A stretch of 64,000 bases of DNA, taken from contig CBDFJR010000002.1 of NCBI GenBank assembly GCA_965248535.1, forward strand, positions 128,001 through 192,000, read 5' to 3'. Shown here piece after piece: positions 3,033 to 38,487 of this stretch. Made by a program: the position numbers and the translations under genes. Origin of the DNA: Phormidesmis sp. (GTDB lineage Bacteria > Cyanobacteriota > Cyanobacteriia > Leptolyngbyales > Leptolyngbyaceae). Each line of letters opens with the position of its first letter. The stretch's first letter is position 1. The notes under the pieces were generated by a model, which searched no databases, was not told where the DNA came from, and saw only the letters and a program-made list of their open reading frames with translations.

Positions 3033-3090
3033 TAACTTATGTTAAGATTATTCACATAACTTTACATCTTTTCTGTAACAGGCATCCATC

Positions 3091-17290: not shown

Positions 17291-17500
17291 GAGGATGTTT
17301 GAAACGTATCGAAAGTTTCTTTGCTGCGTTGCCGTCCCGCCCGTGACTGCAAGTCCGGGCTAACGGTGCAAAACCCGTTGAAACGGGTTGAATTCAACTG
17401 CTACCAGGCGTTTAGTCCCTTCAGTGGACTTCGTTCTGTTAGCCCGGATTTTCAATCACGGGCGGGTTGTGCTAGCAACGACTACTTTTCAAACACCCTC
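17291..17500. mobile_element. 210-bp MITE with IS-like terminal inverted repeats and a long internal palindrome
   Basis: GAGGATGTTTGAAA (17291-17304) / TTTCAAACACCCTC (17487-17500), flanked by CTAA/TTAG; internal IR CCCGCCCGTGA..TCCGGGCTAAC / GTTAGCCCGGA..TCACGGGCGGG. Confidence 0.75.
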
Positions 17501-22637: not shown

Positions 22638-22700
22638 AAACTAGTTAGATTGAGACCTGATTTGAGCACTCTAGCCAGAGTCTTAAAAGAATTGGTTGCT

Positions 22701-24110
22701 ATGTCAAAAAACTATCGTCAAGTCCGCAAGTCAACAGTCGTCAAAAACTCCGCTGGTCAGCAATTCCAACTAGGCGGCTATCGCCCCGAAAAGCAGAACT
22801 CTCAAGACAAAAAATACAGTGCGGGTCGCGATCGTTCCCTGCCTTCTAAAGTCGATCTTCGCGCCTACATGACTCCGGTCGAAAATCAGGGCAACTCCAA
22901 TAGCTGCACCGCCAACGCCATGGCAGGGGCCTATGAATATCTGACAAACCGCCTGCTCGGACAATCGGAAGATGTCAGCCGTTTGTTCATCTACTACAAC
23001 GCACGAGAATTTGACGGCGACCCCAGCCAAGACCAAGGCACATATCTGAAAAGCTGCGTCAAAGTGTTGCGAAAATATGGCGCTTGTTCTGAAAACACTT
23101 GGTCGTTTAACCTCGAACAAATTCTAGAGCAGCCGCCTAAAAAGGCTTATGCAGAAGCCACAAACTTCCGAGTTGAAGACGCGGCTCGTGTGGAGGTCGA
23201 TCTTCACGCCATGCGGAGTTGTCTGGCAGAGGGCTATCCGTTTGCGTTTGGCTTGCAGCTTTTCGAGTCTTTTCAGCAGGCAGGCTCTAGCGGATTGGTG
23301 CCCATGCCTGACCCCGATCGCGAAAAGCACGACGGCGGCCACGCGATGCTGTGTGTGGGCTATTCTGACCCTGATCAAGTTTTTATCGTTCGCAATTCAT
23401 GGGGCGATGACTGGGGCGAGCAGGGCTATTGCTACATCCCTTACGACTACATGACCAAGCCTGATTTTAACCACGACTGCTGGACGATTCGCCAAGTCAG
23501 CGATCGTGACCTGAGTCAGGGCATTCAGGGCAGTTCGGCTCCTCTGTTTAGTGGGTCAAAGGCGGCGATCGCGACTGCATTTCAAACCCCCGGCGCAATT
23601 TATCAACCCTCAGTGATCGCCTTGTTAGAAGAGTCTCACTATGAGACTTACACGGTTGAATATGAAGAAGAGCTTGTCTACATCGAAAACCAAGGGTTTG
23701 TCTCCGTCGATGCTTACGAGAACCTCGATTTTCTCTACTTCCAGGAGTATGACGAAACTGAAGAAGAGTCCGACGACAGCGACGAAGACTCTGAATTCTA
23801 CGAGGAGACTGTAACCGAATACGAAGAAGAGTCCGACGACGAAAAGTCCGACGAAGACGACTCTGAAGAAATCGATAACAGCGACGACGAAGAGTCTGAC
23901 GAAGACGACGAAGAGGAAAGCGACGAAGACGAAGAAGATATCGACGCAGAGACTGAAGGCAGCGACGACGAAGAGGATTCTGAAGAAGAGGAAGATCCTG
24001 AAGAGGAAGATCCTGACGAAGAGGCTTCCGAAGAAAGCGACGAAGAAAGCGAAGACAGTTATGAAGAAGAGTCTGAAGAAGATTTAGGAGGCGATGAAGG
24101 CGAAGAGTAG
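22701..24110 (+). CDS. Papain-like C1 cysteine peptidase with very acidic C-terminal tail
   Basis: QGNSNSCTA, GGHAM and IVRNSWG catalytic motifs; last ~120 aa mostly D/E/S. Confidence 0.87.
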   Translation: MSKNYRQVRKSTVVKNSAGQQFQLGGYRPEKQNSQDKKYSAGRDRSLPSKVDLRAYMTPVENQGNSNSCTANAMAGAYEYLTNRLLGQSEDVSRLFIYYNAREFDGDPSQDQGTYLKSCVKVLRKYGACSENTWSFNLEQILEQPPKKAYAEATNFRVEDAARVEVDLHAMRSCLAEGYPFAFGLQLFESFQQAGSSGLVPMPDPDREKHDGGHAMLCVGYSDPDQVFIVRNSWGDDWGEQGYCYIPYDYMTKPDFNHDCWTIRQVSDRDLSQGIQGSSAPLFSGSKAAIATAFQTPGAIYQPSVIALLEESHYETYTVEYEEELVYIENQGFVSVDAYENLDFLYFQEYDETEEESDDSDEDSEFYEETVTEYEEESDDEKSDEDDSEEIDNSDDEESDEDDEEESDEDEEDIDAETEGSDDEEDSEEEEDPEEEDPDEEASEESDEESEDSYEEESEEDLGGDEGEE

Positions 24111-24266: not shown

Positions 24267-25562
24267 TTGATAGAGCGCTATACCCTACCCGAAATGGGCA
24301 ATTTGTGGACTGAAGCCTATAAATTTCAAACCTGGCTAGAGGTTGAGATCGCCGTCTGCGAAGCTCAGGCTGAGTTGGGTTACATTCCGGCTGAGGCCGT
24401 TGCAGACATCAAAGCAAAAGCAACCTTTGACCCCAAACGCATCTTAGAAATCGAGGCCGAAGTTCGGCACGATGTGATTGCGTTTCTCACTAACGTTAAT
24501 GAATCTGTAGGCGAAGCCGGACGATACATCCACTTGGGCATGACCAGTTCTGATGTCCTAGACACCGCCCTGGCACTGCAACTTGTCGCCAGTTTAGATG
24601 TGATTATGTCTCACGTTGAGGCGTTGATTCAGGCACTTCGCTATCAGGCTCAACAGCACCGCAACACCGTCATGATTGGGCGATCGCACGGCATTCACGC
24701 CGAGCCAATCACCTTTGGCTTTAAGCTGGCTGGCTGGCTGGCAGAAATGCTGCGACACCGCGATCGTCTCTGTCAACTCAAAAAAACCATTGCCGTCGGT
24801 CAAATCTCTGGCGCGGTTGGCACCTACGCCAACATTGACCCTCGCATTGAGTCTTTAACCTGTCAAAACCTGGGACTCGAACCCGATGCTGCCTCGACGC
24901 AGGTGATTTCTCGCGATCGCCACGCCGATTATATGAATGGCTTGGCGCTGTTAGCCTCGTCGATCGAGCGTTTTGCCGTAGAAATTCGCAACCTTCAGCG
25001 CACCGATGTTTTAGAAGTTGAAGAGTTTTTCTCAAAGGGACAAAAAGGCTCCTCTGCAATGCCCCATAAGCGGAACCCGATCCGGTCAGAGCGTCTCACC
25101 GGAATGGCTCGTCTCATCCGAGGCTATGCGGTTGCCGCGATGGAAAACGTTGCGCTCTGGCACGAGCGAGATATTTCCCATAGCTCAGTCGAACGGGTGG
25201 CCTTTCCCGATGCCTGCATTTTGACTCACTTCATGTTGGTCGAAACGACTGACTTGGTGAAAAACCTGCTGGTTTACCCCGACAACATGGCGCGCAACAT
25301 GAACCTTTATGGGGGAGTCGTTTTTAGTCAAAGAGTTTTGTTGGCGCTGATTGGCAAAGATGTCAGTCGCGAAGAGGCGTATACGATCGTGCAGTCATGC
25401 GCTCATCAAGCCTGGAACAAACCCGAAGGTGACTTCCGCAAGTTGATTAGTGAAGACCCCCGCGTGGTCGAAAAGCTCTCCCCGGCTGAAATTGCTGATT
25501 GTTTCGATCCTCAACATCATCTCAAAAATCTAGATCAGGTTTATCAACGACTAGGCATTTGA
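24267..25562 (+). CDS. purB: Adenylosuccinate lyase
   Basis: HDVIAF, TSSD, GRSHGIHAEP, GSSAMPHKRNP signature. Confidence 0.96.
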   Translation: MIERYTLPEMGNLWTEAYKFQTWLEVEIAVCEAQAELGYIPAEAVADIKAKATFDPKRILEIEAEVRHDVIAFLTNVNESVGEAGRYIHLGMTSSDVLDTALALQLVASLDVIMSHVEALIQALRYQAQQHRNTVMIGRSHGIHAEPITFGFKLAGWLAEMLRHRDRLCQLKKTIAVGQISGAVGTYANIDPRIESLTCQNLGLEPDAASTQVISRDRHADYMNGLALLASSIERFAVEIRNLQRTDVLEVEEFFSKGQKGSSAMPHKRNPIRSERLTGMARLIRGYAVAAMENVALWHERDISHSSVERVAFPDACILTHFMLVETTDLVKNLLVYPDNMARNMNLYGGVVFSQRVLLALIGKDVSREEAYTIVQSCAHQAWNKPEGDFRKLISEDPRVVEKLSPAEIADCFDPQHHLKNLDQVYQRLGI

Positions 25563-25689
25563 GCTTCTTAGACTCTACTGTTCCATCCAAGGCAGATTCA
25601 CATCGTCAGGCATTCCAATCGGCAAGAAAGATAGTCAACGTAATCAAGTTACTGCACCCTTCTGGAACACAACCGAAAAAGGTTAGCAA

Positions 25690-25839
25690 ATGATGACTAT
25701 ATTGCTTTTGATTGTGTGTTTTGTGGTCACGGTCTTGCTCCTCCTTGGGGTTCTGATCATCGGCATAGGCGTTCACTTCACCCTACAGAACCTTAAAGCG
25801 CCGTTAATTCAAAGAATGGCACGGGTGGTCAGCAAATAA
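25690..25839 (+). CDS. Possible 49-aa single-TM protein
   Basis: MMTILLLIVCFVVTVLLLLGVLIIGIGVHF...; below the ORF-track cutoff, read manually. Confidence 0.35.
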   Translation: MMTILLLIVCFVVTVLLLLGVLIIGIGVHFTLQNLKAPLIQRMARVVSK

Positions 25840-26241
25840 AGAGCGCCAAGTGATGGTTTCAACTGGCTTGGGCACCGTTCCTTTTCCAATATTTTCTGTT
25901 ACTTTTGCCTTCCAAAATAGTTCGCCAGAGAAATTTGAAGTCAGTTCGTCGCAGTATCGGGGCATTCAAGAAGGCAGTTATGGAATCTTTGCCTCCCAAA
26001 GAACCTGGTATAAACGGTTCGATAGTACTGAAGCGTTTCAGTAAGCCCTAGACTTCTGTTTCCCTTTTAGTGGTTGTCTTCTGACCTGCGTTTCTATCTT
26101 TTTTCTACTAGTTTGGTTCGCGATTTATGGAGCAGTTTAATCTTCGTCGGTCGTTGGATGGATTTAATTTAAGTACAGAACAAAAAACTTAGCCTGTGGA
26201 CATACTGCGCTCGCCGACGATCGCACTCACTCTACCCAAAC

Positions 26242-28161
26242 TCACTCCATTCGGGCAAAATGCTCTAGTAGCATCCGATGGACAAAGATATAACCGCCGC
26301 CAACTTTTTGCAGAAAAATGCGCTCACTGGCGTAGTCGAGGAAGCGGGAATAGTCCCAGGGAATACAATTGTTGCGGTGAAGGATGGATCGTAAGATGAA
26401 GTGTTGGAGGCAGGCTTTACCACCTCCAAAAAACAGCCCAAAGATCAGTCCGAAAATTAGCCCCAGTCCCAGCCATTGTAGTTGCCCTAGAAAAATTACA
26501 ATCAGCAAGCCAATTCCTGCGCCTATCATTCCTAAAATAAGGGCGTTTCTAACTGAGTTCCAAATTCCTTGATTAGGAGATGTTTTTCTCTCTATTTTTG
26601 GGCCGATCAGTCCACCTAGCAAGCCCAAAATTAGTCCACTAATTAGCCCATACGCGATTATTAAGATAGGCATGAGTGGTGATAAAAGAGAAATTCCCAC
26701 AATTATTCCCAAAGGCAATCCTCCAAGGAATCCTTGTTTCGCAGACTTTATGGCTTCTTGCCAAGACCATTTCAAGCTTTCATCTTGCCAAGACCATTTC
26801 AACGTTTCAACTGTTTTGATTTCATCCATCCGCCAAGCTAATTTCCATTCCTCCATCTTCCACCAAGCTAAAGGTAGGACGATACTCATTCCAATGATTA
26901 GTCCCTGTAATGGACTCAATACAAAACAACCAATCAGGAAACCCATCATTAACCCCATCAGGCGAGTTCCCCATTCATAGACCTTTTTTTGGGTCGTTTC
27001 TAACCAAGTCGGCTGCATTCCCTCAATAAAAAAGACCGTTTGCGATGCGTGAGACATCCGTTGCGCTAGCCAAGTTAGCCAGTGTATGGACTGACCCTTC
27101 GAGTATTGTTGATTAACTCCCTTTCGCTTGAACATCCGCTCAATATAAGAATTGAATAAGTGTTCACGATGTGCTTCTACTGAACCTGTTTGAAGTATTT
27201 CTTCTACCTTTTTGCCTTGATAAGCCAAAGTCATAACATTAAGCGTTAGAGGAGACTTCGCTAACTCTTGCAGTGCGGTATCTTCGGACAGCAGAGTTTT
27301 GACGGCTTCTAGTTGTTCACCTGCCGCGTCTAAATAGTGGTTAACCTGCTCAGGAGTCAGAGAGCGGATGTAGATCGCGCCCCGTAATTGCAGACGGTTA
27401 GACAGAACTTCATAGTCTGCAATCCGACTACAGACCACTATCTCAGTCTGCCCGTGCGTTTGCATAAACTGGTTGATAGCTTCGACGCAGGCTTCTCGCC
27501 GATCGGACTTTACCTCGTCTAGACCGTCTAGCAGTAGGAGTAGTTGTTGATCTTCAATCCAGGTTTTAGCAAGAGTCTTGGAAACTTTATACTGACTGTA
27601 CAGTTCCTCAATCAGCCAATCTGCGATCGTTTGCCGTTTGCTGCCCCAAGAAGATAAGTTAAACACCACTGGACTCAGCCGACTCAAACCCCCTTCAGCA
27701 CGAGCAATCAAATTCTGTGCCAGTTTTAGGAGGGTTATTGTTTTCCCAGCCCCTGGGTCTCCCAAAATCAACAGAGTTCGCCCCTCTCCGATTTGATTGA
27801 AGACCTCAGTTGCGCCTGTCCCTGAAGGCAAAATTTGTCTGGACTCTTCTGGTAGCTCCTCGAAGCTACTAAATGAACGTTCTATTGCATCCGATCGCTT
27901 TTCTAGACCAAGTTCAATCATTGTCTTGGTGTGCAATGACTTTTCTAAGACCCCTTCAATCCAATAATCTTTGACTTTACTGAGTAAAACTTGCCTCTGG
28001 CGGTATTCTACCTGAGTTAAAGATTGTTCTGCACTGGGTGATTGCCCACTAATTAACTCAGAGACTTGGGAAATGAAGTATTGAGTGACGGCTCCATGAT
28101 TTTCTTGGATAAACCCCTGAACATTTCCGCCAGAGATGTTGACAAAATTATCGGCAGTCAT
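26242..28161 (-). CDS. NACHT NTPase (NLR-like) with N-terminal amyloid-like motif and C-terminal transmembrane repeats
   Basis: Walker A GDPGAGKT, Walker B LLLLDGLDE, CSR, PLTL; Gly/Leu-rich TM repeats; FLDYA....FLQKVGGGYIFVHRML tail. Confidence 0.9.
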   Translation of the reverse strand: MTADNFVNISGGNVQGFIQENHGAVTQYFISQVSELISGQSPSAEQSLTQVEYRQRQVLLSKVKDYWIEGVLEKSLHTKTMIELGLEKRSDAIERSFSSFEELPEESRQILPSGTGATEVFNQIGEGRTLLILGDPGAGKTITLLKLAQNLIARAEGGLSRLSPVVFNLSSWGSKRQTIADWLIEELYSQYKVSKTLAKTWIEDQQLLLLLDGLDEVKSDRREACVEAINQFMQTHGQTEIVVCSRIADYEVLSNRLQLRGAIYIRSLTPEQVNHYLDAAGEQLEAVKTLLSEDTALQELAKSPLTLNVMTLAYQGKKVEEILQTGSVEAHREHLFNSYIERMFKRKGVNQQYSKGQSIHWLTWLAQRMSHASQTVFFIEGMQPTWLETTQKKVYEWGTRLMGLMMGFLIGCFVLSPLQGLIIGMSIVLPLAWWKMEEWKLAWRMDEIKTVETLKWSWQDESLKWSWQEAIKSAKQGFLGGLPLGIIVGISLLSPLMPILIIAYGLISGLILGLLGGLIGPKIERKTSPNQGIWNSVRNALILGMIGAGIGLLIVIFLGQLQWLGLGLIFGLIFGLFFGGGKACLQHFILRSILHRNNCIPWDYSRFLDYASERIFLQKVGGGYIFVHRMLLEHFARME

Positions 28162-28178
28162 TTTCTAAGCGCCCTTGA

Positions 28179-28556
28179 TTAACTGAAGTTTTGAGTTATC
28201 GTCCCAGTATTTTGCTGTGTCAAACCTTGAACTGTACCCCCAGAAATTTGAACACTAAATTTCCCTTCCGCTGCTTCTTGAGGATGTAGTTGTTCCATTA
28301 ACTTTTGAGCCAGTTTAACAATTTCTTCGTCTTTGTCAGCTCCAGCCTCAGTTAATTCATCTTCTAAAAGAGGTCTCGTCTTTTCGGGCTTCTGTTCATA
28401 CTTATCCAGGATAGTAGCTGAATCTGATTTTCCTTGACTCTCAAACTTGTGCTTAATCAAGGCTTTCAAGCCGTTGTAAGCATCTTGAGCGACACCACCA
28501 GCCGTTTTTGCTGCACCAGCTACCAATGCTGCAAGGATAAGAGAAATAGGATCCAT
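28179..28556 (-). CDS. Bell-like helical effector with C-terminal amyloid-like motif
   Basis: MDPISLILAALVAGA...AQDAYNGLKALI N-terminus; C-terminal motif 14/23 identical to the N-terminus of the adjacent NACHT. Confidence 0.8.
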   Translation of the reverse strand: MDPISLILAALVAGAAKTAGGVAQDAYNGLKALIKHKFESQGKSDSATILDKYEQKPEKTRPLLEDELTEAGADKDEEIVKLAQKLMEQLHPQEAAEGKFSVQISGGTVQGLTQQNTGTITQNFS

Positions 28557-28774
28557 AAATTCATCTCCTGAGGTTTAAGTTTTGAGTCAAACCATCTGTT
28601 GCGTTTAAGATAGGACAGGAAAAGAGATAACACTGGAAAGACGCAGATATCGTGATGTTTCTTGATAAACAGATTTGAGTATCAGTGCGATCGCTTTAAC
28701 CAAGAGCTTACGGGGTTTTGGCGATTTCTTCCTACCGATCTCTTCCCGATTGCAGCCTCATCAAGGATTCAGGG

Positions 28775-29560
28775 GCATAACGGCTCAAATCAGCGGCGGC
28801 AGACAATTTCTGTGACTCCACCGAGACCTCGCGCCCTTCCGCTCCAACGTGTTGTGTACGCCCAGCATGGGTGTGAACTAATGGGGTGAAAGTCCCCTGT
28901 CGGAGAACCAACGTCCAAATGATCCCAAAAGATCCGAGTGACGACAACGACTAGCTTAAGGTAAGGGCGTTTCCGCGAGGAAGGGTCTGAAGGAAGCCAG
29001 CGGCAAATCTGCGAGCTGACGGACAGAAACGTCATAGAAGGCTGAGATTCCTGTGGCAAGTGAGCACAACATCATGAAGCCTTTTGGTTCAGGGAACACA
29101 GTAAATGACGCAGTTGTGCAGAGACAGTTCACGTTCTTATCTGGGGAGATCTGCTCAAAGGGCGGTCTGAGGGTCTACGGGAGTCTGATTGAGGTCTAGC
29201 GGGAAACGGCTAGGGAGCCACGGAACCCTAAGGACATTCAGGCAGCGTGAGTCATGGCAACAGGACTCATGATTGAGCAGAAGTCAGCAGAGGTCATAGT
29301 AGCCAAACACTCACCGTAATGGGTGAGACAGGGTGAAGGGCTGAACCTTAGAAAGCAGGGAGGAGTTGCAAAGCTCGACTGGGCGATGAACCCGAACGGG
29401 GGAGCTATTTTGTCGGCGCTTAACTGCACAACCAGCCCTGGATATTCAGTTCTATTGAACTGGCTTGTCTAAAACTTTTCTGGGGACGCGCCCCGTGCGG
29501 AGCCGCACGCGGGGTGCCGTGGGGACTGGGGGAGAAAATCCCCTGGTTACCCGATTATGC
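28775..29560 (-). other. attC site interrupted by a group II intron (86 bp when rejoined: 28775-28855 + 29556-29560)
   Basis: On the cassette strand, rejoined GCATAAC ... GTTATGC with internal AGCGG/CCGCT pairing; starts 4 nt after the dprA stop. Confidence 0.85.
28856..29555 (+). mobile_element. ORF-less group IIC-attC intron, 700 nt
   Basis: 5' GTACGCCCAGCATGGG after exon TTGT; short class-C domain V with CGC triad (~29485-29520); domain VI ending TTACCCGAT; no RT ORF; antisense to cassette genes. Confidence 0.88.
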
Positions 29561-29564
29561 TGTT

Positions 29565-30557
29565 CTACGATGATGCAATAAGACTGAGTTGAACCATCTG
29601 ATTATCTAGAGCCTTGTTCTCATTTACAGAATCACTCCTCTCTAAAATTGAAGTGATTTTTTGAACACCATTTTCCAATGAGATCTCGTGACAGCCTAGT
29701 TGAATTAAGTCCGAATTACCAATTGGGGGTTGTGCCAAGCAGTTTGGTGAGAGAACAAAAACTGGTATGTTCATCGCCATTGCACTTCTAGCAGCATCAA
29801 ACGTGCCACTCATCCTGCCTTTACTATCAATTTCTTGTCCTGAAGCTATAACAACAACTGCATCTGCCAGCGCACAAACCAACTTATTTCGTGCCATAGC
29901 ATTTCGAGCAAGCCACTTTTCTGAAGGGTTGAATTGCGAAAGAACAAGAGTGTTATACGCAGTAAAAAAGGGTTTGAATTCCTTCTTGGCTTCAAAATTT
30001 AGAATGCCTAGACTAAGAATAATCGTAGTAGTACCTTCTGCTTCTAAAGCGCCTAAATGAGCGGCAGAATCAACACCTTTAGCATAACCAGAGACAATAT
30101 TAAACCCTGCTCTAGCTAGTCCCTTTGCTAACTCAGCTGTGATGGCAAGAGCATCTTCACCAACGTTACGCGAACCAACAATTGAAATGCTTGGTGATTT
30201 TGCAAGTGGTGTATGCCCTCTTGCGTACAAGACTGGGGGAATGTTGTATTGCCGCCCATACTTCTTCAGTCTAGAGGGAAAGTCAGGAGATTCAGGATGC
30301 AGAATCTTCACTCTATTTGTCTCTAGCTGTTCGTAAGCGCGTTGAATCAATTCGTAATCCTGTTCATGCGGAAAGGATTTGAGTGTAGTTCTCAGTCTTC
30401 CTGAGATTTTTGGAAAATCTAATTTCCTATTAGTTAGGAAATTGTTAAGATCGGTAGATTCTCCAGATACGAGATCGTGAACTTCCCACAGCAATTTCGT
30501 CCCTATTCCTTTGGCGCGAGCCAACCGAAACCAATCGAAACTGCTGCTGTAAGTCAT
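29565..30557 (-). CDS. DprA/Smf-family protein (ShosA-like)
   Basis: PPVLYARG, SIVGSR, IVSGYAKGVDSAAH, ARNKLV; ATG 30557 overlaps the upstream TGA (ATGA). Confidence 0.87.
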   Translation of the reverse strand: MTYSSSFDWFRLARAKGIGTKLLWEVHDLVSGESTDLNNFLTNRKLDFPKISGRLRTTLKSFPHEQDYELIQRAYEQLETNRVKILHPESPDFPSRLKKYGRQYNIPPVLYARGHTPLAKSPSISIVGSRNVGEDALAITAELAKGLARAGFNIVSGYAKGVDSAAHLGALEAEGTTTIILSLGILNFEAKKEFKPFFTAYNTLVLSQFNPSEKWLARNAMARNKLVCALADAVVVIASGQEIDSKGRMSGTFDAARSAMAMNIPVFVLSPNCLAQPPIGNSDLIQLGCHEISLENGVQKITSILERSDSVNENKALDNQMVQLSLIASS

Positions 30558-31177
30558 CTTTTTGTCCTCGTCATCGTTATCGTTAGCACGTAGACTCTCG
30601 CTACACCCCCCTGGAACGTGAGAGCATTGCACACTGCGTTCAAGGTTTCCCCAGACCTAAAGAGATCGTCAAACACCAAAAGAGACTGCTGAGCGTATCT
30701 TTGGTCAGCGACCTGAAACGCACCTTGCATTTGTTGCTGGCGAATTTCAGCGTCTTCTATATCTTTCAGCGCTTGTGTCTGTCTAACCTTGATGAGGTAA
30801 TCGTCTGGTACAGAAAGCCCAGTCTTCTCCCCGATCGCTTTCGCTAATTCTAACACTGGCTGAAAAGGGCGGTCTAATTTGGATGGTGGAACAGCGACGA
30901 TGCTTTGGAAGTAGCGAAAAACCCTAAAATTATTCCGGATATAATTTGCAGCAATCTCAGCCATTGGCTCGACTTTGCTACGGTCAAAATTATACTTTAG
31001 CTGATAGAGAGCTTCACCCAGTTCAGTACGGGTTGTATCAAACCCTCCATCACTCCGAGAAACGCTCGACACTGTATGTAGATCAAGTGCTACTCCATAA
31101 ATCCACGAACCATTAATAACTCTTGGGTCAATATTCACGGTCGAAGCCCGCCCTATCCCGTCTTGTGAAGCTCTCAT
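30554..31177 (-). CDS. ComF-like phosphoribosyltransferase (ShosT-like)
   Basis: LYQLKY, VPPSK..R.FQP, PRPP loop LVFDDLFRSGETL. Confidence 0.85.
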   Translation of the reverse strand: MRASQDGIGRASTVNIDPRVINGSWIYGVALDLHTVSSVSRSDGGFDTTRTELGEALYQLKYNFDRSKVEPMAEIAANYIRNNFRVFRYFQSIVAVPPSKLDRPFQPVLELAKAIGEKTGLSVPDDYLIKVRQTQALKDIEDAEIRQQQMQGAFQVADQRYAQQSLLVFDDLFRSGETLNAVCNALTFQGGVARVYVLTITMTRTKR

Positions 31178-31242
31178 TTTATCTTGTGTGACTATACCTG
31201 ATTACCAGGCCTAGATTGCCCACAAAATAAAGCGAATGTGCA

Positions 31243-31328
31243 GCCTAACGTTCCCAATCAGCGGCGACAGATATGACTGAAACGAAGTGCAAAGACTTTT
31301 TACGTCCGCTGCATTGGGGTTGTTATGC
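31243..31328 (-). other. attC recombination site (86 bp)
   Basis: Cassette strand: GCATAAC-AACCC-AATGCAGCGG ... CCGCTGATT-GGGAAC-GTTAGGC, 4 nt after the stop at 31333; unpaired base in the L arm. Confidence 0.9.
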
Positions 31329-31332
31329 CGCG

Positions 31333-32466
31333 CTATGGACACGAACTGTTTTTGCCATTAATAGTCCACGTATCGTTAGCGATCCAACCTGTTCGTCCTC
31401 CAGATGTAATTTCAAAATAGCCTTCTGTAGAACCCGCAAATTCTCTTGTCACGTAATCCGAGACCGTATAATTGCCAGAGCTTACCCTGATAAGCTCTTG
31501 ACTGAATCTGTCTGGGGCACTTCTTAAGGAAACCAAAGAATTATTAATTGCTACAACACATCCTGACGAAGCAATAGCTTGCCTCCTAGCTACTTCTGCC
31601 CGTTGACGCGCAAGCTCCTGTTGCCGTGCAAGTTCTTGCTGACGTGCAGCCTCTGCTTGCTGACGTGCAAATTCTCTCTGCCGTTCAGCCTCTTCCTGAG
31701 CAGCACGTTGTCTTGCAGCCTCTTCCTGAGCAGCACGTTGTCTTGCAGCCTCTTCCTGGGCAGCGCGTTGCCGTTCAGCTTCTTCTTGGGCGGCACGTTG
31801 TCTTGCAGCCCCTTGCTCGTCAGTGTTTGAGTTAGGGGGTACAGATGGCTTATTACCTGAACTTGATGGTAGTTGCGGCGAGACAACGGTGTTAGGCTTG
31901 CTAGGCTCTCCAACTTCGCCACCAACAGCTTTAGCAAATTTTAGAGCTTTAGTGTCAGAAATAAAACTTGCGACTAGGACTGCCTTCTCACCTGTTTGCC
32001 TAGTTGCGTTGATGGCATCTTTGCAGTACTTCTGCTTGACTTCATCTAAGTTTCCACCATTTATAAATACTGGATACCAAGTACTGTTGGAATCTGTAGA
32101 CTTATCCCCACAAGAGTCTTGGGGAAACTGAGGTTCACTGAGTTGAGAGTCATTACTCTGTTCAGGCTTTCTATTGATCGGGCTTTGGGTAGGTAACGCA
32201 ATAGCTGACGATTCCTCAGATTTCGGACTGAAAGTCCCAACTACTTTAATTCCAACCTCCCTAGCTCCATAAAGAAAGAGAAAAAGAGGTATTAATGCAA
32301 AAGCAACCTTTCCCCAGTGTCCGTTTCGAGAATTATTGTAGATGTACTGAATATAGTCTCGTCCGACTTGAATTAAATCTCTACCAGCTTGACCTATTTG
32401 TCCTGAATTTTCAGCGTTGTTAAGCTCGATATCCTGATCTACATCATGAGGCTTTTTCTGGCTCAT
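31333..32466 (-). CDS. Membrane-anchored protein: N-terminal SGQIGQAGRDL motif, TM, Cys-paired extracellular domain, coiled-coil repeats, C-terminal SH3b-like domain
   Basis: TM VAFALIPLFLFLYG; FPQDSCGD...YPVF...YCKDA...VASF...GGEVGEP; (AARQRAAQEE)n; VSLRSAP...YFEI....TGWI. Confidence 0.75.
   Translation of the reverse strand: MSQKKPHDVDQDIELNNAENSGQIGQAGRDLIQVGRDYIQYIYNNSRNGHWGKVAFALIPLFLFLYGAREVGIKVVGTFSPKSEESSAIALPTQSPINRKPEQSNDSQLSEPQFPQDSCGDKSTDSNSTWYPVFINGGNLDEVKQKYCKDAINATRQTGEKAVLVASFISDTKALKFAKAVGGEVGEPSKPNTVVSPQLPSSSGNKPSVPPNSNTDEQGAARQRAAQEEAERQRAAQEEAARQRAAQEEAARQRAAQEEAERQREFARQQAEAARQQELARQQELARQRAEVARRQAIASSGCVVAINNSLVSLRSAPDRFSQELIRVSSGNYTVSDYVTREFAGSTEGYFEITSGGRTGWIANDTWTINGKNSSCP
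31680..31811. repeat. 30-bp coding tandem repeat, about 4 units (A[A/E]RQRAAQEE)
   Basis: Repeats of GCAGCACGTTGTCTTGCAGCCTCTTCCTGA with variants. Confidence 0.85.
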
Positions 32467-32489
32467 AATTTTGCTCTATGGTTGATGAA

Positions 32490-32909
32490 TCAAAGTCCAA
32501 AGAAACTTTTTGCCACACCGAACCAAGGTAGAAGACCTTCAATAATTGGCTTTACCTTTCCAAATAAGCCTTGACCCGCACTAACTGTCTCATCTGCATT
32601 CTTCAAAACTTCAGTAGCCCTCTGCAAGCTAGTTGCTGCAAAATTCTTTTGAGGCTCTTTACTTTCTGCTTCTTCTTTCGCTGTCTCGATATGCCGAATT
32701 GCTTTGCTTTTCTCTGAATCGGACAAGTTTGAACTCCAAATTAATTCCTCAATTTGTGCCAAACCTGCCACTACGTCGGTAGGAGTCAATATTCCCTCAG
32801 TTTTGATCTGGTTCTGGGTCAAATCTCGTCCTGCTTGACCGATTTGTCCTGATACTTGACTACCGCTAATGGAGATGGATTGAGACTGGTAGGGCTTTTC
32901 TCCTGACAT
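32490..32909 (-). CDS. Small helical protein with N-terminal SGQIGQAGRDL motif and amphipathic C-terminus
   Basis: 139 aa; GGAG RBS upstream; ends GLFGKVKPIIEGLLPWFGVAKSFFGL. Confidence 0.78.
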   Translation of the reverse strand: MSGEKPYQSQSISISGSQVSGQIGQAGRDLTQNQIKTEGILTPTDVVAGLAQIEELIWSSNLSDSEKSKAIRHIETAKEEAESKEPQKNFAATSLQRATEVLKNADETVSAGQGLFGKVKPIIEGLLPWFGVAKSFFGL

Positions 32910-33067
32910 AGAACTCCTTATTTTACAACCGAGTAATATGGTCTGCTTCAGTATGCGTAACTTACTTCAGCTCTGACAGTACCCTTGAGGGTACTTTTCT
33001 CTGAAATAACTTGACTCTGGACAACAACAGATAACCTTCCAATTGCGTCCTTACCAAGAACTAAGCG

Positions 33068-33181
33068 GCATAACGATTGAGTTGAACCGCACCAAATCAA
33101 TCAAGCAACACCAACTTTAGTTGGTAGTGCGGTTAACCTTACGACTATTTGTAGCGTGTCGGTTCCAACGAAATGTTCTAC
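33068..33181 (-). other. attC-like site (114 bp) nearest intI
   Basis: Cassette strand: GTAGAAC-5nt-GTTGGAACC ... GGTTCAAC-6nt-GTTATGC, with an extra G in the left arm. Confidence 0.75.
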
Positions 33182-33233
33182 GGAACTGGGTGGATGTAGT
33201 GTTCCCAATGGGTAACATTTATATCCAGTTCTC

Positions 33234-33250
33234 GTGGAACTATTATGTGG
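33234..33250 (-). other. Candidate attI core (CATAATA-GTTCCAC on the cassette strand)
   Basis: GTTCCAC is one mismatch from the complement of the GTAGAAC box of the next attC; lies between intI and the array. Confidence 0.35.
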
Positions 33251-33465
33251 ACTGAAAGTTTCTGCCTAAGATCCCAATTTTAACGACTTAGCCTGAGTCT
33301 TTCCGCCCAAGTCCGAATCAAGCGACTTAGCCCGATATGATTTCCGCATAGTACCCCTCGACAGGGATCTTGGGCGGAAATCTTCAGTATTTCTTCCAAG
33401 AGAGAACCTGTTACCGTCCGCCTAAGATCCCGAATGACAGAATTACAGCCTTGGAACTCGCCGGG

Positions 33466-34431
33466 ATGGAACCACGACCCAGAAAGCTGCTCGAACAAGT
33501 CTCTGACCTGTTGCGAGTGAAGCACTATTCATACCGCACCGAGCAGACCTACGTTCAATGGATTCGGCGCTACATCCTGTTTCACAACAAGACCCATCCC
33601 AAAGACATGGGAAGTCCAGAGATTGAAGCCTTTCTAACGCATCTTGCAGTGCAAGAACAAGTGGCGGCATCGACGCAAAACCAAGCCCTCAGCGCCATTT
33701 TGTTCCTCTACCGCGAGGTGCTACGGCAAGAACTAGATGCTTCGATCGATGCTGTTCGAGCCAAGCAACCCCGCTATTTGCCCACGGTCTTGACAAAAGA
33801 TGAAGTCAGAGCCGTCATTGGCAACCTCAGTAGGGTGTATCAACTCGTCGTGCAGGTTCTTTATGGCAGCGGGGTGCGGTTAAACGAAGGATTGAACATC
33901 CGGGTCAAAGACCTCGATTTTGCTCAACAGCAAATCATCGTTCGCACGCCAAAAGGGGTTGAGAGTCGAGTCACGATGCTGCCCACCAGTCTAAACGAAC
34001 CGCTACATGAGCATCTGCAACGGGTACGCCGATTGCACCAGCAAGATTTAGCCCAAGGCTATGGAGCCGTGCATCTGCCGTATGCACTGGCTCGAAAGTA
34101 TCCGAATGCGGAGCGATCGTGGGTATGGCAGTTTGTGTTTCCGTCAGACCGTCGCTGTCGTGACCCTAGAACGGAGCAAATCAATCGCTTTCATCTGCAT
34201 GAAAGCGGAGTGCAGAAAGCCTTGAAGCAAGCCGTGTTTTCCGCAAGGATTCAAAAGCGAGTCGGCTGTCATACCTTTCGCCATAGCTTTGCGACGCATC
34301 TGCTGGAAGCAGGCTATGACATTCGGACGGTTCAAGAACTGCTGGGGCACAAAGATGTGAAAACGACGATGATTTATACTCACGTTCTCAATCGAGGTGG
34401 AAAAGGCGTGCGAAGTCCGCTTGATCCATAG
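33466..34431 (+). CDS. intI: Integron integrase (tyrosine recombinase)
   Basis: [23 protein letters not shown]; integron-specific insertion [12 protein letters not shown]....WQFVFPS; catalytic R (GVRLNE), HTFRH, LLGH, Y (TTMIYTHV). Confidence 0.96.
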
Positions 34432-34520
34432 CGATCGGGCGTCCACTTCTCTCAAAAATGGTCGTTAAATACAAAAAGAGCGGACATTACATTCGCTCTT
34501 ATGAATTTTTGTAGAGGAGT

Positions 34521-35045
34521 TTAATTAGAAACTTCTGCAAGCTCTACAACGTGGCCTGAGAAGTCTTTAACTAAAAAATTAAGGGGTTTTTCACGCCGAA
34601 TCTTATGCTTTAGATTAGAGGCTTGGACGCGCAGCAAGATCTGATCGAGACAATCCCGATCGAAGCACACATGGCGCTGACGATCTTTCTCACCCAAACT
34701 CGCCCCCGAAATGACGTGAAGCTGCGTATTTTTTTTAAGCTGATACCACAGACCATCGTTGCCATTGCCCCGCGCTGTGGTGCTGCCCACATTGCCCGAC
34801 AAATACATGGGGCTAATGCCTGCGGTGCCTAGCGACTGCTCATAGTTATAGTAATAGTGCAGCGGCACATCTGCCACAGGCAGACTGAGCATCCCTTCAT
34901 AAAAGTCTCGTGCCAACTCCACATCTGACACCATCACCGTATGCACCTTGGGCGCACTGGTCAAAAACATCCACATGGCAACCGCATAGGCACCCAGCAG
35001 CATGACCATGATTCCCTGGGTGGAGAATAAGCTATCTAATCCCAT
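34521..35045 (-). CDS. Glyoxalase/VOC-like cyanobacterial protein
   Basis: N-terminal TM; VHTVMVSDVELARDFY, QLHVI, RHVCFD, VKD..G.VVELAE. Confidence 0.78.
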   Translation of the reverse strand: MGLDSLFSTQGIMVMLLGAYAVAMWMFLTSAPKVHTVMVSDVELARDFYEGMLSLPVADVPLHYYYNYEQSLGTAGISPMYLSGNVGSTTARGNGNDGLWYQLKKNTQLHVISGASLGEKDRQRHVCFDRDCLDQILLRVQASNLKHKIRREKPLNFLVKDFSGHVVELAEVSN

Positions 35046-35280
35046 AGAAAACCAAAACGAGTGAACGATCGTAGCGAGTCGAGAAATCTAGTAACTAGTA
35101 TCCCTGAGCTTACTCATTCTATCAAGCTCAGTTTGAGCAAATCCGTAACGAACTTAGTAAAAATTTAGAAATTCGAGCCATAATCACCCCACGGCGCTAG
35201 ATTTTGAAAAAAAAGATGTCCAAATCGAGAAAGACGCTGTATATAGTTACAGTGCACGTCCTCTAGTTTGAACCCAAGCT

Positions 35281-35946
35281 GTGGCTATCCCAACGTTTCC
35301 TGAAGCCCATCACCCGATCGTCAAGTCGCTCTCTCACTATAGCGATCAAGAGTTGCTGACGCTATTTCAACGCTACGCTGAGGCGGGGCAATATTTCACG
35401 GCGATTTTTTGCCGCTATAGCCCGATGGTCTATACGTTGATTCAGCATCGCGCCCGATCGCCCGTGCAAGCCGATTATCTGTTTGCGCTGCTGTGGCGAC
35501 ACATTTTTTATGAAATGGGCGGGCTAGATCTGCGGGCGTTTGGGTCAGAAGAAATCACGTTTCAGAGTTGGCTGATCAACGTCACAGCCTTGACCATCAA
35601 TCAGTCTGAGTTGCCCCCCGTCGAAGAAATTCACTACAACCTGCGGGCCATGTCGCCGCCCCTGTGGTGCTATCTCGATCGGGCGTTAGATCAGCTTCCG
35701 CCCACAATGCGGCTGATGGTGACATTAGCCCAAACCTTTCACTGGAGCGATACGCGCATCTCTGCCTACCTGCAAGCTGAGGGCGAACGCATTCCCCCGG
35801 CTGAGGTCAAAGCGCGACTGCAAGAGGGCTATCACCTGCTAGAAACGACTTTGCCAGACGACATTAGAGCCATCTATCTAGATGGGAACGCTAGTGTTCA
35901 AGGATATGGATTGGATTCAGCGCCACTAGAGGCTAGGCTGGACTAA
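35281..35946 (+). CDS. Sigma-70 (ECF)-like conserved cyanobacterial protein
   Basis: SDQELL..FQ, FTAIFCRY, FQSWL, ALDQLPP..R region-2/4-like pattern. Confidence 0.7.
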   Translation: MAIPTFPEAHHPIVKSLSHYSDQELLTLFQRYAEAGQYFTAIFCRYSPMVYTLIQHRARSPVQADYLFALLWRHIFYEMGGLDLRAFGSEEITFQSWLINVTALTINQSELPPVEEIHYNLRAMSPPLWCYLDRALDQLPPTMRLMVTLAQTFHWSDTRISAYLQAEGERIPPAEVKARLQEGYHLLETTLPDDIRAIYLDGNASVQGYGLDSAPLEARLD

Positions 35947-35991
35947 TCGTGTTTCCTTGTTCGCTTAATAATGTCGGGTGGAGGTTCTGAA

Positions 35992-37038
35992 ATGCGTTGG
36001 ATGGTGGCACCGCTTGTAGTGGGGTTGGGGGTTGCTCAGGGTTTGATCGGTGGCATGGTGCTGGTTCCGGGGGCGCAGGCATCAGACCTGAGTGATCAGT
36101 TGAGCATCAAACTCTATAACGGCACTCGCGGCACTGCTCGCACTGAAGCCGATCGCCTCGTGCGGTTGGGCAACCAGCAGAATCAAGCTGGGTTTATAGA
36201 CAAAGCGATCGGGTCTTGGCAGCAGGCGCTAGCCATCTATCACGACATTAAAGAAGTCGAAGCGGAGGGCACGACCTATGAGGCGTTAGGTCAGGCCTAC
36301 TCAAAGGTGGGGCGGTTTGCTGAAGCCGAGGATGCGGTGCGACGCAGCTTGGCGATCGCTCGTGACACTAAAGATTTTCAACGTCAAATCTATGGCTTTA
36401 ATAATTTAGGCACGCTGCTGCTGCGACGATCGAGCGTTGTGGAGGCCCAAAAAACTTTTGCCGAAGGTTTAAAGGTGGCCCAAGACGTGCAAAACCCGGC
36501 TGGGCGGGGCTTATCTCTGAGCAACTTGGGTTTGGTTGCCTATTCGCAGGGCAATTATAAAGAAGCCATTCGCTATTATGAACAGGCAAAACCCTTGCGC
36601 GAACAGGCTAAAGACCCCGGCGTTGCTAACACGCTGAATAATTTGGGCGATGCCTATCGAGCCATTCGCGATTATCGAACGTCTTTGGTCAGCTATCGGC
36701 AGGCGCTGTTTGTGGCTCAAAATAGTCTCGATCGTCCCAATCAATTTCGGGCTTTAGAAGGGCTGACGCGGGCGTTTTATGGGCTGGGTCAAAACTCCAA
36801 CGCTTCAGAAACGCTCGATCAACGATTGGCGCTGGCTCTAGAGCAAAACGATTCTAAACAGGTGATTGCAGCGCTGAAGGGGTTGGCGCAATTCTATACT
36901 GCGAAGGGCGATTGGGTGGCGGCAGATAGCTATTATCAGCAGGCGCTGGCGGTAGCTCAAGGTTTGAATGACACTCAAGAACAGCAGGGATTGTTGACGC
37001 AAATCGGGACGCTGCGATCGCGCAAGTTTACCCAATAG
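35992..37038 (+). CDS. Secreted tetratricopeptide repeat protein
   Basis: Signal peptide; repeated NNLG..Y...G.Y..A..YY.QAL units. Confidence 0.85.
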   Translation: MRWMVAPLVVGLGVAQGLIGGMVLVPGAQASDLSDQLSIKLYNGTRGTARTEADRLVRLGNQQNQAGFIDKAIGSWQQALAIYHDIKEVEAEGTTYEALGQAYSKVGRFAEAEDAVRRSLAIARDTKDFQRQIYGFNNLGTLLLRRSSVVEAQKTFAEGLKVAQDVQNPAGRGLSLSNLGLVAYSQGNYKEAIRYYEQAKPLREQAKDPGVANTLNNLGDAYRAIRDYRTSLVSYRQALFVAQNSLDRPNQFRALEGLTRAFYGLGQNSNASETLDQRLALALEQNDSKQVIAALKGLAQFYTAKGDWVAADSYYQQALAVAQGLNDTQEQQGLLTQIGTLRSRKFTQ

Positions 37039-37152
37039 AGCAAGGGTCGCCCAGTCTTCTCACAAATGCATCTGTGGGTTGAAGAGCAGCAGTAGACTTA
37101 GGGTATAGTGAAACCCATTCGCTGCATTGACTGACCCTGTATTTTAACTGCT

Positions 37153-38487
37153 ATGAGTGATTATCGCGCCAAAACTTTGAAGGAAGCTTTTCGTCTCTGT
37201 GATGTCGATCCTTTGTCGGGAGCGAGCTTAGAGCGCTACTATGTCGATTTAGTCTCGGTTCGGAAGGCAGAAGCGATTAATGAGGTCAACACATTATTAG
37301 ACTTTCAGGAGCCAGGAGACTTTTGCACGATTTTGTTCACGGGTCATCGCGGGTGCGGCAAAAGCACAGAACTTCAGCGCATTCGTCGCCAGTGGGAACA
37401 AGACTATCGGGTGATTTATTTAGAAGCCAATGAAGAAACCGATATTAACGATGCTGAATATACAGACTTTTATCTAATCGTCATTAAGAGAGTTGAGTCT
37501 GAGCTACGGGAAATGGGACTCAGCTTTGATCCAGGGCTGCTGAAGAGTTTTGAAAAGTGGTTTATGGAAATCACTAACGAAAATGAAGAATCGATTGAAA
37601 GCTCGGTCAGCATAGCGGCTGAGGCGAGTGTAGGAAGCCCGACTCCGTTTATTGCCAAGCTGTTGGTTAAGCTTTTGGCGCAGATTAAGGGAGCCGCGAA
37701 GCAGAAAACCGTGATTAGGCAGACTTTGCAAAAAGATATTTCTCGGTTGAAGGCGGATATTAATTTGTTGCTGCGCGATGCCTATCAAAAGATTAAGCAT
37801 CGATATTCAAAAGGTTTTTTGGTTATTTTTGATAATCTCGATCGCGTGCCGCCAACGGTTGGAAATCACCTATTTTTTGATTATGCGTCTCAGCTTCAAG
37901 AGTTAGATTGCACGACTATTTACACGGTTCCTATTTCTGTGTTGTGTTCTTCTAAAAATATCTCTAATAGCTTTGGTGAGCCGCATGTGGTGTCAATGGT
38001 GGGCATCTATCAACTGGTGCGAGATCGCTGTGAGCTTGACTATAACCCTGAAGGGCTGAAGGGCTTGATGCAGATTATTGAGAGGCGGGTTAATGTGGCT
38101 CACTTGTTTGAGTCGTCAGATCAAGTTTTAGCGCTGGCGCAGGCAAGTGGGGGTCATGTGCGGCAGTTGATGCAGATGGTGCGGAGTGCGTGTCTGAGGG
38201 CTAGCACTCACAAACACGTCAAGATTCAGGCGGAGGACGTGCTGCATGCGGTCAAGCAGCAGCAGTTTAATTTTGAGCGATTTATCCCTGATGATCACTA
38301 TTCGCTGTTGGCAAAGGTTTGTTTGAGCAAAAATATTACGAAAGATGAGACGGGACAGTTGATGTTGTTTAACACGTCAGTGTTGGAATATAACGGACTC
38401 GATCGCTGGAATTATCCCAACCCGGCTGTGCGGCAAAGTGCTTTGTTTCAAACCGCCCTTGATGATCTTCTGGCTCAAAATGCTTGA
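37153..38487 (+). CDS. P-loop AAA/STAND-like ATPase
   Basis: Walker A GHRGCGKST, Walker B LVIFDNLDR, SGGHVRQL. Confidence 0.85.
   Translation: MSDYRAKTLKEAFRLCDVDPLSGASLERYYVDLVSVRKAEAINEVNTLLDFQEPGDFCTILFTGHRGCGKSTELQRIRRQWEQDYRVIYLEANEETDINDAEYTDFYLIVIKRVESELREMGLSFDPGLLKSFEKWFMEITNENEESIESSVSIAAEASVGSPTPFIAKLLVKLLAQIKGAAKQKTVIRQTLQKDISRLKADINLLLRDAYQKIKHRYSKGFLVIFDNLDRVPPTVGNHLFFDYASQLQELDCTTIYTVPISVLCSSKNISNSFGEPHVVSMVGIYQLVRDRCELDYNPEGLKGLMQIIERRVNVAHLFESSDQVLALAQASGGHVRQLMQMVRSACLRASTHKHVKIQAEDVLHAVKQQQFNFERFIPDDHYSLLAKVCLSKNITKDETGQLMLFNTSVLEYNGLDRWNYPNPAVRQSALFQTALDDLLAQNA

Follow-up and report, generated by a model that had tools for sequence, protein, structure and literature searches.

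We analysed a window of 64,000 nucleotides (nt) from a filamentous cyanobacterium, Phormidesmis sp. (contig CBDFJR010000002.1, positions 128,001 to 192,000; all coordinates below count from the first letter of the window). We are confident that this window contains a small chromosomal integron, whose cassettes carry two-gene modules of defence type and one of whose cassette recombination sites, or attC sites, is split by a group II intron that contains no gene. The integron reading is supported by an integron integrase (IntI), an attachment site attI, three attC sites, and cassettes whose boundaries obey the circle rule described below. The HIP1 octamers of the window and its housekeeping genes (purB, ureE/ureF, dnaG and leuA) identify it as cyanobacterial chromosome, and the integron has purB on one side and a TPR/ATPase cluster upstream of ureEF on the other. 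Reading away from intI, the array consists of a cassette without genes (cassette 0), cassettes 1 and 2, which carry modules 1 and 2, and module 3, which is not followed by an attC (Table 1).

The integrase and attI

IntI scores 467.6 bits against TIGR02249 (cut-off 265), aligns over its full length with the VchIntIA/IntI4 structure 2a3v (E 3.6e-88), ungapped over residues 41-352 with the integron-specific insert included, and retains all of the conserved blocks. The gene is therefore intact, as the original prediction held. Its open reading frame (ORF) reaches back to a TTG at 33370 (ORF 33370-34431); we favour the ATG at 33466 as the likely start, because the resulting 321 residues equal the length of the homologues. 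IntI has at least 8000 relatives (8000 of 8000 candidates scored), and most of those with a name are cyanobacterial. Among the matches listed, the closest, at 95% identity, come from a metagenome-assembled genome (MAG) of Myxacorys chilensis and from Gloeocapsopsis crepidinum.

When the DNA between intI and the first cassette is aligned across nine sources, a palindrome (TTAGRCnGAAA..TTYCnGTCTA) is found to be conserved, followed by ATAGTT, and the similarity among the nine ends directly after AGTT. Because the conserved motif and its AGTT end there, with the sequences diverging beyond, we place the crossover, G/TT, between 33240 and 33239 (here and below, a slash marks the point of recombination or insertion). 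A profile of the nine sources matches the window at 33293-33235, and in many other loci it has a match some 165-240 nt upstream of intI.

A Coleofasciculaceae locus (L056, in our numbering of the fetched loci) has a second, inverted attI-like motif at 1376-1434 (+), some 8.5 kb from its intI. An inverted attC and a copy of the intron described below (2320-3101) adjoin it, which suggests an inverted or second platform in that genome.

The attC sites

Rfam holds no model of attC, and we built a covariance model for this analysis. Its seed came from a BLAST search in which candidate sites of the window returned short matches upstream of intI in other loci. The first version, R1, comprises 13 attC sequences, all of 84-88 nt. 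The common pattern is R''(nnTAAC)-AA-L''-G-CAGCGG-A-C...GCCGCTG-L'-AAC-GTTAnnn, and its arms covary: 89.4% of 282 cells pair, with 13 of the 22 pairs changed on both sides, a result reached by none of 500 shuffles, while slid controls pair at only 26-48%. R1 finds 64 sites in 80 related loci. The second version, R2, is made from these 64 attC sites of other cyanobacterial loci and includes no sequence of the window. In the same 80 loci R2 finds 73 sites, every one of them within the 291 kb upstream of intI and none within the 597 kb downstream; 71 of the 73 lie on the strand opposite to intI. R2 also matches the class 1 attC sites of a Providencia plasmid, on the cassette strand, at 19-29 bits. 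Since R2 separates array from non-array DNA in the 80 loci, it could serve for mining cyanobacterial cassettes.

Scanning all 64 kb of the window on both strands, with filters off, R2 recovers each of the three sites that had been predicted (33068-33181, 31243-31328, and the split site 28775-29560). These score 67.2 bits for 31243-31328(-) (E 3e-17), 38.7 bits for 28775-28861(-) (E 1e-8), and 37.9 bits for 33068-33181(-) (E 1.8e-8). Below E=1.8 the scan yields nothing further, except the reverse-strand echo of 31243-31328 (24.8 bits). As DNA, the attC of cassette 1 folds into an R box and an L box, the latter with a single bulged base, separated by a spacer of 3 nt. The site at 33068-33181 has a counterpart in a related locus (L075, 33.9 bits). 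We had first read this site as attI, on the strength of its R1 score, and we dropped that assignment after obtaining the R2 score and the attI alignment. Two of the sites lie where the original prediction put them with respect to the genes, 4 nt past a stop codon, with the final stop-codon bases at 31333 and 29565 and the first attC bases at 31328 and 29560, respectively.

One further candidate, at 17358-17444, was rejected; its E-values are 0.096 under R1 and 2.7 under R2, and it folds as a branched hairpin rather than as an attC. It falls within an intergenic element of 103 nt (17350-17452) that has a 12-bp outer stem of attC-like boxes (GGCTAAC...GTTAGCC) and a folding z-score of -4.1.

Table 1. 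Features of the integron and its surroundings in the window (aa, amino acids; PRTase, phosphoribosyltransferase)
Feature	Position	Strand	Basis or remark
intI, integron integrase, 321 aa	33466..34431	+	TIGR02249, alignment to 2a3v
attI, imperfect palindrome TTAGGCAGAAACTTTCAGTCCA then ATAG/TTCCAC	33235..33293	-	conserved motif and profile
Cassette 0, 167 nt, no ORF	33073..33239	-	attI crossover to R' G of attC 33068-33181
attC of cassette 0, 114 nt, R'' GTAGAAC, R' GTTATGC	33068..33181	-	R2 37.9 bits
Cassette 1, 1824 nt, two genes	31249..33072	-	attC boundaries
Module 1 gene, 139 aa	32909..32490	-	
Module 1 gene, 377 aa	32466..31333	-	one transmembrane helix, coiled-coil repeat, weak SH3_3
attC of cassette 1, 86 nt, GCATAAC..CCCAAT-G-CAGCGG-A-C...GCCGCTGATTGGG..GTTAGGC	31243..31328	-	R2 67.2, R1 81.1 bits
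Cassette 2, 1768 nt without the intron	28781..31248	-	attC boundaries
ShosT-like PRTase, 207 aa	31177..30554	-	PADLOC
DprA-like ShosA	30557(30632)..29565	-	PADLOC, Pfam
Group IIC-attC intron, 700 nt, no protein gene	28856..29555	+	Rfam and full-length copies
Main part of cassette 2 attC (L'', loop, L', R' GTTATGC)	28775..28855	-	R2 38.7 bits
Module 3, no terminal attC	26242..28780	-	starts at R' box
Small protein, 125 aa: hydrophobic N-terminal helix, helical bundle, C-terminal motif	28556..28179	-	
NACHT protein, 639 aa: N-terminal motif, NACHT, C-terminal membrane segments	28161..26242	-	
Compositionally foreign block	25563..34431		between purB and right-hand flank; GC, CGATCG, HIP1

Cassette boundaries and the cassette without genes

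Under the circle rule, the first six bases of a cassette, together with G, are compared with the R'' box of the cassette's own attC. For cassettes 0, 1 and 2, respectively, 6/7, 7/7 and 6/7 of these bases are complementary, as expected of an integrated circle. The perfect case had been noticed from the sequence beforehand: the start of cassette 1, G/TTATGC at 33073, is the exact complement of its own R'' box, GCATAAC (31328-31322). All six ORFs of the array lie on the minus strand, divergent from intI as predicted, and they form three tight pairs, with gaps of 23 nt in module 1 and 17 nt in module 3 and a 4-nt ATGA overlap in module 2. The original prediction presented these two-gene modules as a departure from the norm. 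The pairs themselves stand; the departure does not, because the median attC-to-attC spacing in related cyanobacterial arrays is 1497 nt (39 intervals), so that two-gene cassettes are not unusual here.

Cassette 0 consists of its attC plus a 53-nt leader that contains a conserved motif, TGTTAC-N5-TTGGGAAC. A short first cassette with this motif and without genes is present in at least five cyanobacterial integrons. Relatives of cassette 0 lie just upstream of intI in L075, L023 and L049, and a copy in L009 (1-135) is 90% identical over 136 nt, that contig ending inside the copy; the IntI of L009 is only 72% identical to that of the window. ORF-less cassettes have been reviewed (PMC8876359), including the ORF-less promoter cassettes of Tansirichaiya 2019 as summarised there. 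Cassette 0 is like the latter in being short, in having an attC and no ORF, and in occupying the first position; it is unlike them in that a consensus scan of it gives one weak site, directed toward intI. This sigma-70-like site, 33218-33246 (+), spans the attI junction. In the leader of cassette 1, on the plus strand and thus antisense to the cassette genes, there is also a terminator-like hairpin at 32978-32995 (AGTACCCTTGAGGGTACT followed by a run of T).

An intron without a protein gene

The attC of cassette 2 is split by a group II intron, which lies antisense to the cassettes. On the plus strand, 28969-29555 matches the Rfam group II models RF02001 (127.8 bits), RF01998 (63.7 bits) and RF00029 (43.5 bits; threshold 40). 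Besides the copy in the window there are four full-length copies: one in the Coleofasciculaceae MAG (L056, 87.7% identity over 700 nt), one in a gammaproteobacterial MAG (L066, 68.7%), and two on plasmid pA of Kovacikia minuta, about 270 kb apart (L082, 86.7%; L083, 86.6%). We set the ends of the intron at 28856 and 29555 because the similarity of the full-length copies starts and stops there. A 5' end at 28854 had been tried, and it gave poor attC folds; the comparison of copies gave 28856 instead. All five copies begin with GTACGCCC and end with ACCCGAT, as in the window, or ACCCGAG. Each is found in a different attC, and in 5/5 cases the copy adjoins an attC match in the opposite orientation, which the intron's 5' end overlaps.

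Introns of the group IIC-attC class are described as inserting at TTGT/T into the bottom strand of attC, within its R'' box, antisense to the cassettes (PMC7923331). The intron in the window is inserted in the same manner, that is, in the bottom strand of R'', at TTGT/T (..GTTGT/TATGC), and opposite to cassette transcription. Its 5' exon ends in GTGTTGT and its 3' exon begins with TATGC; among the five copies, the 5' exon ends in TTGT in four, and the 3' exon begins with T. The loop of exon-binding site 1 (EBS1) changes along with the exon, reading ACAAC where the exon ends in GTTGT and ACAAG where it ends in CTTGT.

Comparison with an intron from a class 1 integron, that of the blaIMP-4-qacG2-aacA4-catB3 array (L081), reveals what the window's copy lacks. 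Bases 1-510 and 634-700 match the L081 intron on either side of its ltrA gene, at 68% identity in the 510-nt 5' part and 79% in the 67-nt 3' part. The homology ends exactly at the ltrA ORF, and 123 nt replace the 1.3-kb ORF region. In a fold of four cyanobacterial and proteobacterial copies, 46 of the 211 consensus pairs show compensatory changes; domain 5 does not vary, and a bulged A is present in domain 6. Of 72,556 plasmid records, just 1 contains the segment peculiar to the ORF-less form, that of Kovacikia pA, where it is found at four places; pA thus holds at least four copies of the intron. The element in the window resembles the class 1 IIC-attC introns (S.ma.I2 and the L081 intron) in its bottom-strand R'' site at TTGT/T, in its antisense orientation, and in its start, GTACGCCCAG. 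It differs from them in having no ltrA, in its length of 700 nt, and in its hosts, which are cyanobacteria and one gammaproteobacterial MAG.

We regard this lineage as the most novel part of the locus. Tentatively, and with less than even confidence, we suggest that the 700-nt element represents a non-autonomous IIC-attC lineage that has lost its reverse transcriptase (RT) gene, has kept a covarying ribozyme, and is still spreading between attC hairpins, as a parasite of integrons comparable to a miniature inverted-repeat transposable element (MITE). Such a lineage may remodel arrays by locking or fusing cassettes, in the spirit of an idea on cassette formation that Leon and Roy are said to have put forward; this remodelling is possible because the copy in the window adjoins a hybrid attC. 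In the full-text literature that we searched, we found no report of ORF-less IIC-attC introns, the main 2008 survey of ORF-less introns lying outside its scope, and no report of IIC-attC introns in cyanobacteria. The effects of IIC-attC introns on cassette expression have been reviewed (PMC8876359; PMC3001079). An attC-targeting intron that has no gene and occurs in multiple copies is, in our opinion, the most useful lead from this locus: it offers a compact natural system that bears on mobilisation in trans, on the blocking or rewiring of cassette expression, and on the hybridisation of attC sites and the fusion of cassettes.

A likely hybrid attC

Once the intron is taken out, the attC of cassette 2 reads GCATAAC-AAC-ACGTTG-G-AGCGG...CCGCTG-ATTTGAG-CC-GTTATGC. 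In the window the remaining 5 nt of its R'' box (GCATA, 29560-29556) lie beyond the intron, so that R'' is now 700 nt away from the L'' arm. Even without the intron, the intron-side arm ACGTTG-G-AGCGG does not pair with CCGCTG-ATTTGAG, and the outer L helix is unpaired. A Kovacikia copy has the same type of 3' arm, paired there with a matching arm; in L056, L066 and L083 the intron-side arm has the usual CCGCTG-C form, and in L056 and L066 the opposite arm matches by eye. The two L arms in the window therefore look as though they derive from different attC subtypes, and the site looks like a hybrid. We infer a deletion that fused two half-sites, the half of the cassette's own attC that bears the intron and the distal half of another attC.

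Cargo of the array

By its sequence, module 2 is Shosta/PsyrTA-like, its first protein apparently being a short and divergent form. Shosta is a published defence system. The DprA-like protein matches the PADLOC models PsyrA (5.5e-53) and ShosA (2.4e-35) as well as PF02481 (1.2e-40). The PRTase protein matches PsyrT at 1.3e-16, over only the C-terminal 150 residues of a 689-residue model, and ShosT at 4e-5; in Pfam, Pribosyltran reaches only 0.091. As in Shosta and PsyrTA, a protein with a PRTase domain is followed by a DprA-like protein in the same direction, and their stop and start codons overlap (ATGA, 30557-30554). The module is unlike those systems in the reach of its PRTase, which covers 150 of the 689 residues of PsyrT, at the C-terminus, and matches ShosT weakly.

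Module 3 pairs a small helical protein with a NACHT protein. The NACHT domain (PF05729) scores 39.8 bits (cut-off 26.7), and hydrophobic segments occupy residues 400-585. The first 29 residues of the NACHT protein match the C-terminus of the 125-aa protein, with 14/23 identical (E 8e-7); AlphaFold confidence is low over this shared motif. The family of the 125-aa protein has 1248 representatives, which share the hydrophobic N-terminal helix, the helical bundle and the same C-terminal motif. Its nearest clusters in the Atlas carry PF20701 (HetE-N; score 0.96), which we take to be the Bell domain, and this provides a lead, as yet a weak one, toward a Bell assignment.

Pairs of a Bell-domain protein and a NOD-like receptor (NLR) that share bacterial amyloid signalling motifs (BASS) have been described (10.1101/2020.01.06.895854). 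Like those pairs, module 3 has its motif at the C-terminus of the small helical protein and at the N-terminus of a collinear NACHT protein, 17 nt away. Unlike them, its NACHT protein ends in membrane segments rather than in TPR or WD repeats, and the pair resides within an integron array. Module 3 thus appears to have the layout of bacterial NLR amyloid-signalling pairs, and by analogy a defence role is plausible; if so, amyloid-motif NLR cell-death pairs may be able to travel as integron cargo. Defence is the role proposed for NLR pairs with amyloid motifs, and one such pair has been shown to act so in Escherichia coli.

In module 1, the 139-aa and 377-aa proteins have an N-terminal motif in common (18/33 identical), which by eye resembles the motif of module 3. 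Residues 55-73 of the 377-aa protein form a single transmembrane segment, and SH3_3 is matched weakly (E 0.029); in the Atlas search this protein scored below 0.8. The 139-aa protein matches PDC-M14B weakly (3.1e-9). It has only 25 relatives, and the 4 of these that come with the name of an organism are all cyanobacterial.

The original prediction regarded all of the modules as defence-like. This holds well for module 2, given its PsyrA, ShosA and PsyrT matches, and it is plausible for module 3, given the shared motif; for module 1, with no more than the weak PDC-M14B match, it is not supported. Taken together, the cargo is best read as a set of abortive-infection or cell-death modules, from which a defence phenotype would be predicted. 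It is conceivable, if rather improbable, that modules 1 and 3 serve instead in cell-cell recognition or in developmental cell death in a multicellular cyanobacterium. Most reports of Bell/NLR amyloid pairs concern multicellular bacteria, and the 2020 preprint leaves their role open (10.1101/2020.01.06.895854); moreover, the tail of module 1 is extracytoplasmic and SH3-like. Yet the Bab/Agp pair, which also has an amyloid motif, is reported as an abortive-infection system of Escherichia coli (10.1101/2024.11.07.622273), the neighbouring cassette is of a published defence type, and defence systems are reported to abound in integron cassettes (10.1101/2024.07.02.601686). We therefore retain abortive infection or cell death as the preferred interpretation of the cargo.

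Foreign composition and the mobility of the array

The block between purB and the right-hand flank differs from its surroundings in composition. Its GC content is about 0.44 (0.42-0.46 outside the intron and intI), compared with 0.51 in the flanks, and its CGATCG density is 0-2.1 per kb, compared with about 5 per kb. The exception is the 224-nt leader of module 3, at 4.5 per kb, which corresponds to one site. Counts of HIP1 bear out the scarcity of octamers that had been noted by eye: the window has 71, and across 24913-36352 there is a single one, at 28687. Within the foreign block this amounts to 1 observed against about 14 expected (Poisson P ~1e-5). Beyond intI, to its right, the composition appears native.

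These features suggest the following history. IntI would act on attC bottom strands in their folded form, recombining them with attI at the crossover 33240, and in this way the platform would have acquired the gene-less 167-nt cassette, the two-gene cassette 1, the Shosta/PsyrTA-like cassette and, most likely, the Bell-like/NACHT pair too. A non-autonomous IIC-attC intron, its RT gene lost, would have reverse-spliced into the bottom strand of the cassette 2 attC, entering at TTGT/T under the guidance of EBS1 (ACAACA) paired with intron-binding site 1 (IBS1, TGTTGT). The intron must presumably have depended on an intron-encoded protein made elsewhere.

The original prediction went further, in describing a shuffling defence island. 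We find this overstated. With the attC of cassette 2 split and its arms mismatched, and with none following module 3, the array's distal half is probably frozen. By the rules of attC structure, only cassettes 0 and 1 probably still look excisable and mobile.

One could go further in the opposite direction and regard the whole integron as a fossil, that is, as a platform and array inherited as relics, no longer recombining and fixed as a block in the lineage. We consider this unlikely. The intI gene is of full length with all conserved blocks present, the attC of cassette 1 is near consensus (67-81 bits), and the composition of the block is still strongly foreign, and thus too recent to have converged on that of the host. 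The identity of cassette 0 to its L009 copy, high though the two IntI proteins are only 72% identical, points to a recent exchange of cassettes. In addition, in 31 of the 80 related loci the contig breaks off no more than 400 nt upstream of intI, where attI and the first cassette lie; variation in cassette content within the sampled populations would lead one to expect this. A fossil would, for its part, account for an array that is short, with one attC split and mismatched and none at its end, for the HIP1 site that has arisen inside it at 28687, and for the lack of an identified promoter. On balance, we prefer the reading of an integron with a putatively functional platform, whose recombination activity and expression we infer from the features above.

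The status of module 3 requires separate consideration. As the original prediction stated, no attC follows the NACHT gene, and neither R1 nor R2 finds one there or anywhere between 26241 and purB. Since no attC ends the array, the status of module 3 as a cassette has to be argued from composition and position alone. Its GC content (0.442) and CGATCG density (1.3 per kb) are the same as those of the cassettes, it starts exactly at an R' box, and its orientation, two-gene layout and foreign composition are as in cassettes 1 and 2. Its motif resembles that of cassette 1, and the hybrid attC suggests that this end of the array has already undergone remodelling by deletions. All of this makes it doubtful that module 3 was never a cassette and that the array simply ends at 28775, with the pair derived from an adjacent island or from integron-carrying DNA; such an origin would nevertheless agree with the missing attC, with the length of the module (2.5 kb, where 33 of the 39 attC intervals are shorter), and with the position of the only HIP1 site in its leader. 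Module 3 was thus most likely acquired as a cassette.

At 26188-26194, 47 nt past the NACHT stop, the sequence GGCTAAG is one mismatch away from the R'' box GGCTAAC, with no L box after it. Either chance or the remnant of a lost attC could explain it.

Several results weigh against the reading as a whole. With respect to the recombination sites, in addition to the missing terminal attC, R1 gave 33068-33181 only 9 bits, and the attC of cassette 2 scores low, with 5/22 of the model's pairs non-canonical. A scan for the sigma-70 consensus finds 8 sites where 10.3 are expected, none of them convincingly placed as the cassette promoter (Pc), and the promoter and terminator scan as a whole is not above chance. 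The 80 related loci contain no genome of the same species. With respect to the intron, the L082 copy sits at TAGT/T and has only partial EBS1 pairing; and as to the intron's mobility, it contains no ORF, and a tblastn search with ltrA has no match in the window or the 82 other fetched loci. With respect to the cargo, the Bell assignment is weak, in that PF20701 is matched by only 5 of 60 family members and the protein in the window matches no Pfam family. No TPR, WD or other repeat family is found by Pfam in the NACHT protein, and for module 1 no family appears beyond the weak PDC-M14B and SH3_3 matches. Finally, the predicted structures of the 125-aa protein (predicted local distance difference test, pLDDT, 79.5) and of the 139-aa protein (pLDDT 78.4) have no significant fold match in the PDB, with best E-values of 4.9 and 0.3, respectively. 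A PDB sequence search with the 125-aa protein likewise gave nothing meaningful.

Relation to known integrons

Cyanobacterial integrons were noted when IntegronFinder was published (PMC4889954), and defence systems in the cassettes of chromosomal integrons, two-gene systems included, have been reported as well (10.1101/2024.07.02.601686). Both are thus established, and the supplements to the preprints, outside our scope, may list relatives of the cassettes described here. The integron in the window is like the sedentary chromosomal integrons of Vibrio type (10.1101/2024.07.02.601686) in its intact IntI, its divergent array, its attC sites with R and L boxes and bulges, and its two-gene cargo of defence type. 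It is unlike them in its cyanobacterial host, in the shortness of its array (three attC sites), and in having an attC type of its own, of 84-88 nt. Its attI, a palindrome flanked by repeats, its first cassette without genes, and its remodelled distal end set it apart as well. With its attI, attC family and cassette boundaries mapped, it serves as a well-resolved cyanobacterial example of integrons as stores of small defence systems.

Flanking genes

Neither the array nor its flanks can be followed into the related loci by means of their proteins. In tblastn searches against the 80 loci, the six proteins of the array give no match, and four proteins of the right flank give a single one, the TPR protein in L030; six further flank proteins (purB, ureE, ureF and others) have no match in any of the fetched loci.

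To the right of the integron, at 35971-40571, lie a tetratricopeptide repeat (TPR) protein and a P-loop ATPase (37153-38487), along with four consecutive short TPR ORFs (38438-40571) that resemble one frameshifted gene of STAND type. HIP1 is sparse in this region (2 sites in 4.6 kb), and its CGATCG density is native-like. In the left flank there are two genes for papain-like or C39-like cysteine peptidases, at 15510-17126 and 22650-24110, one of which sits between a ComM-like Mg-chelatase gene and purB.

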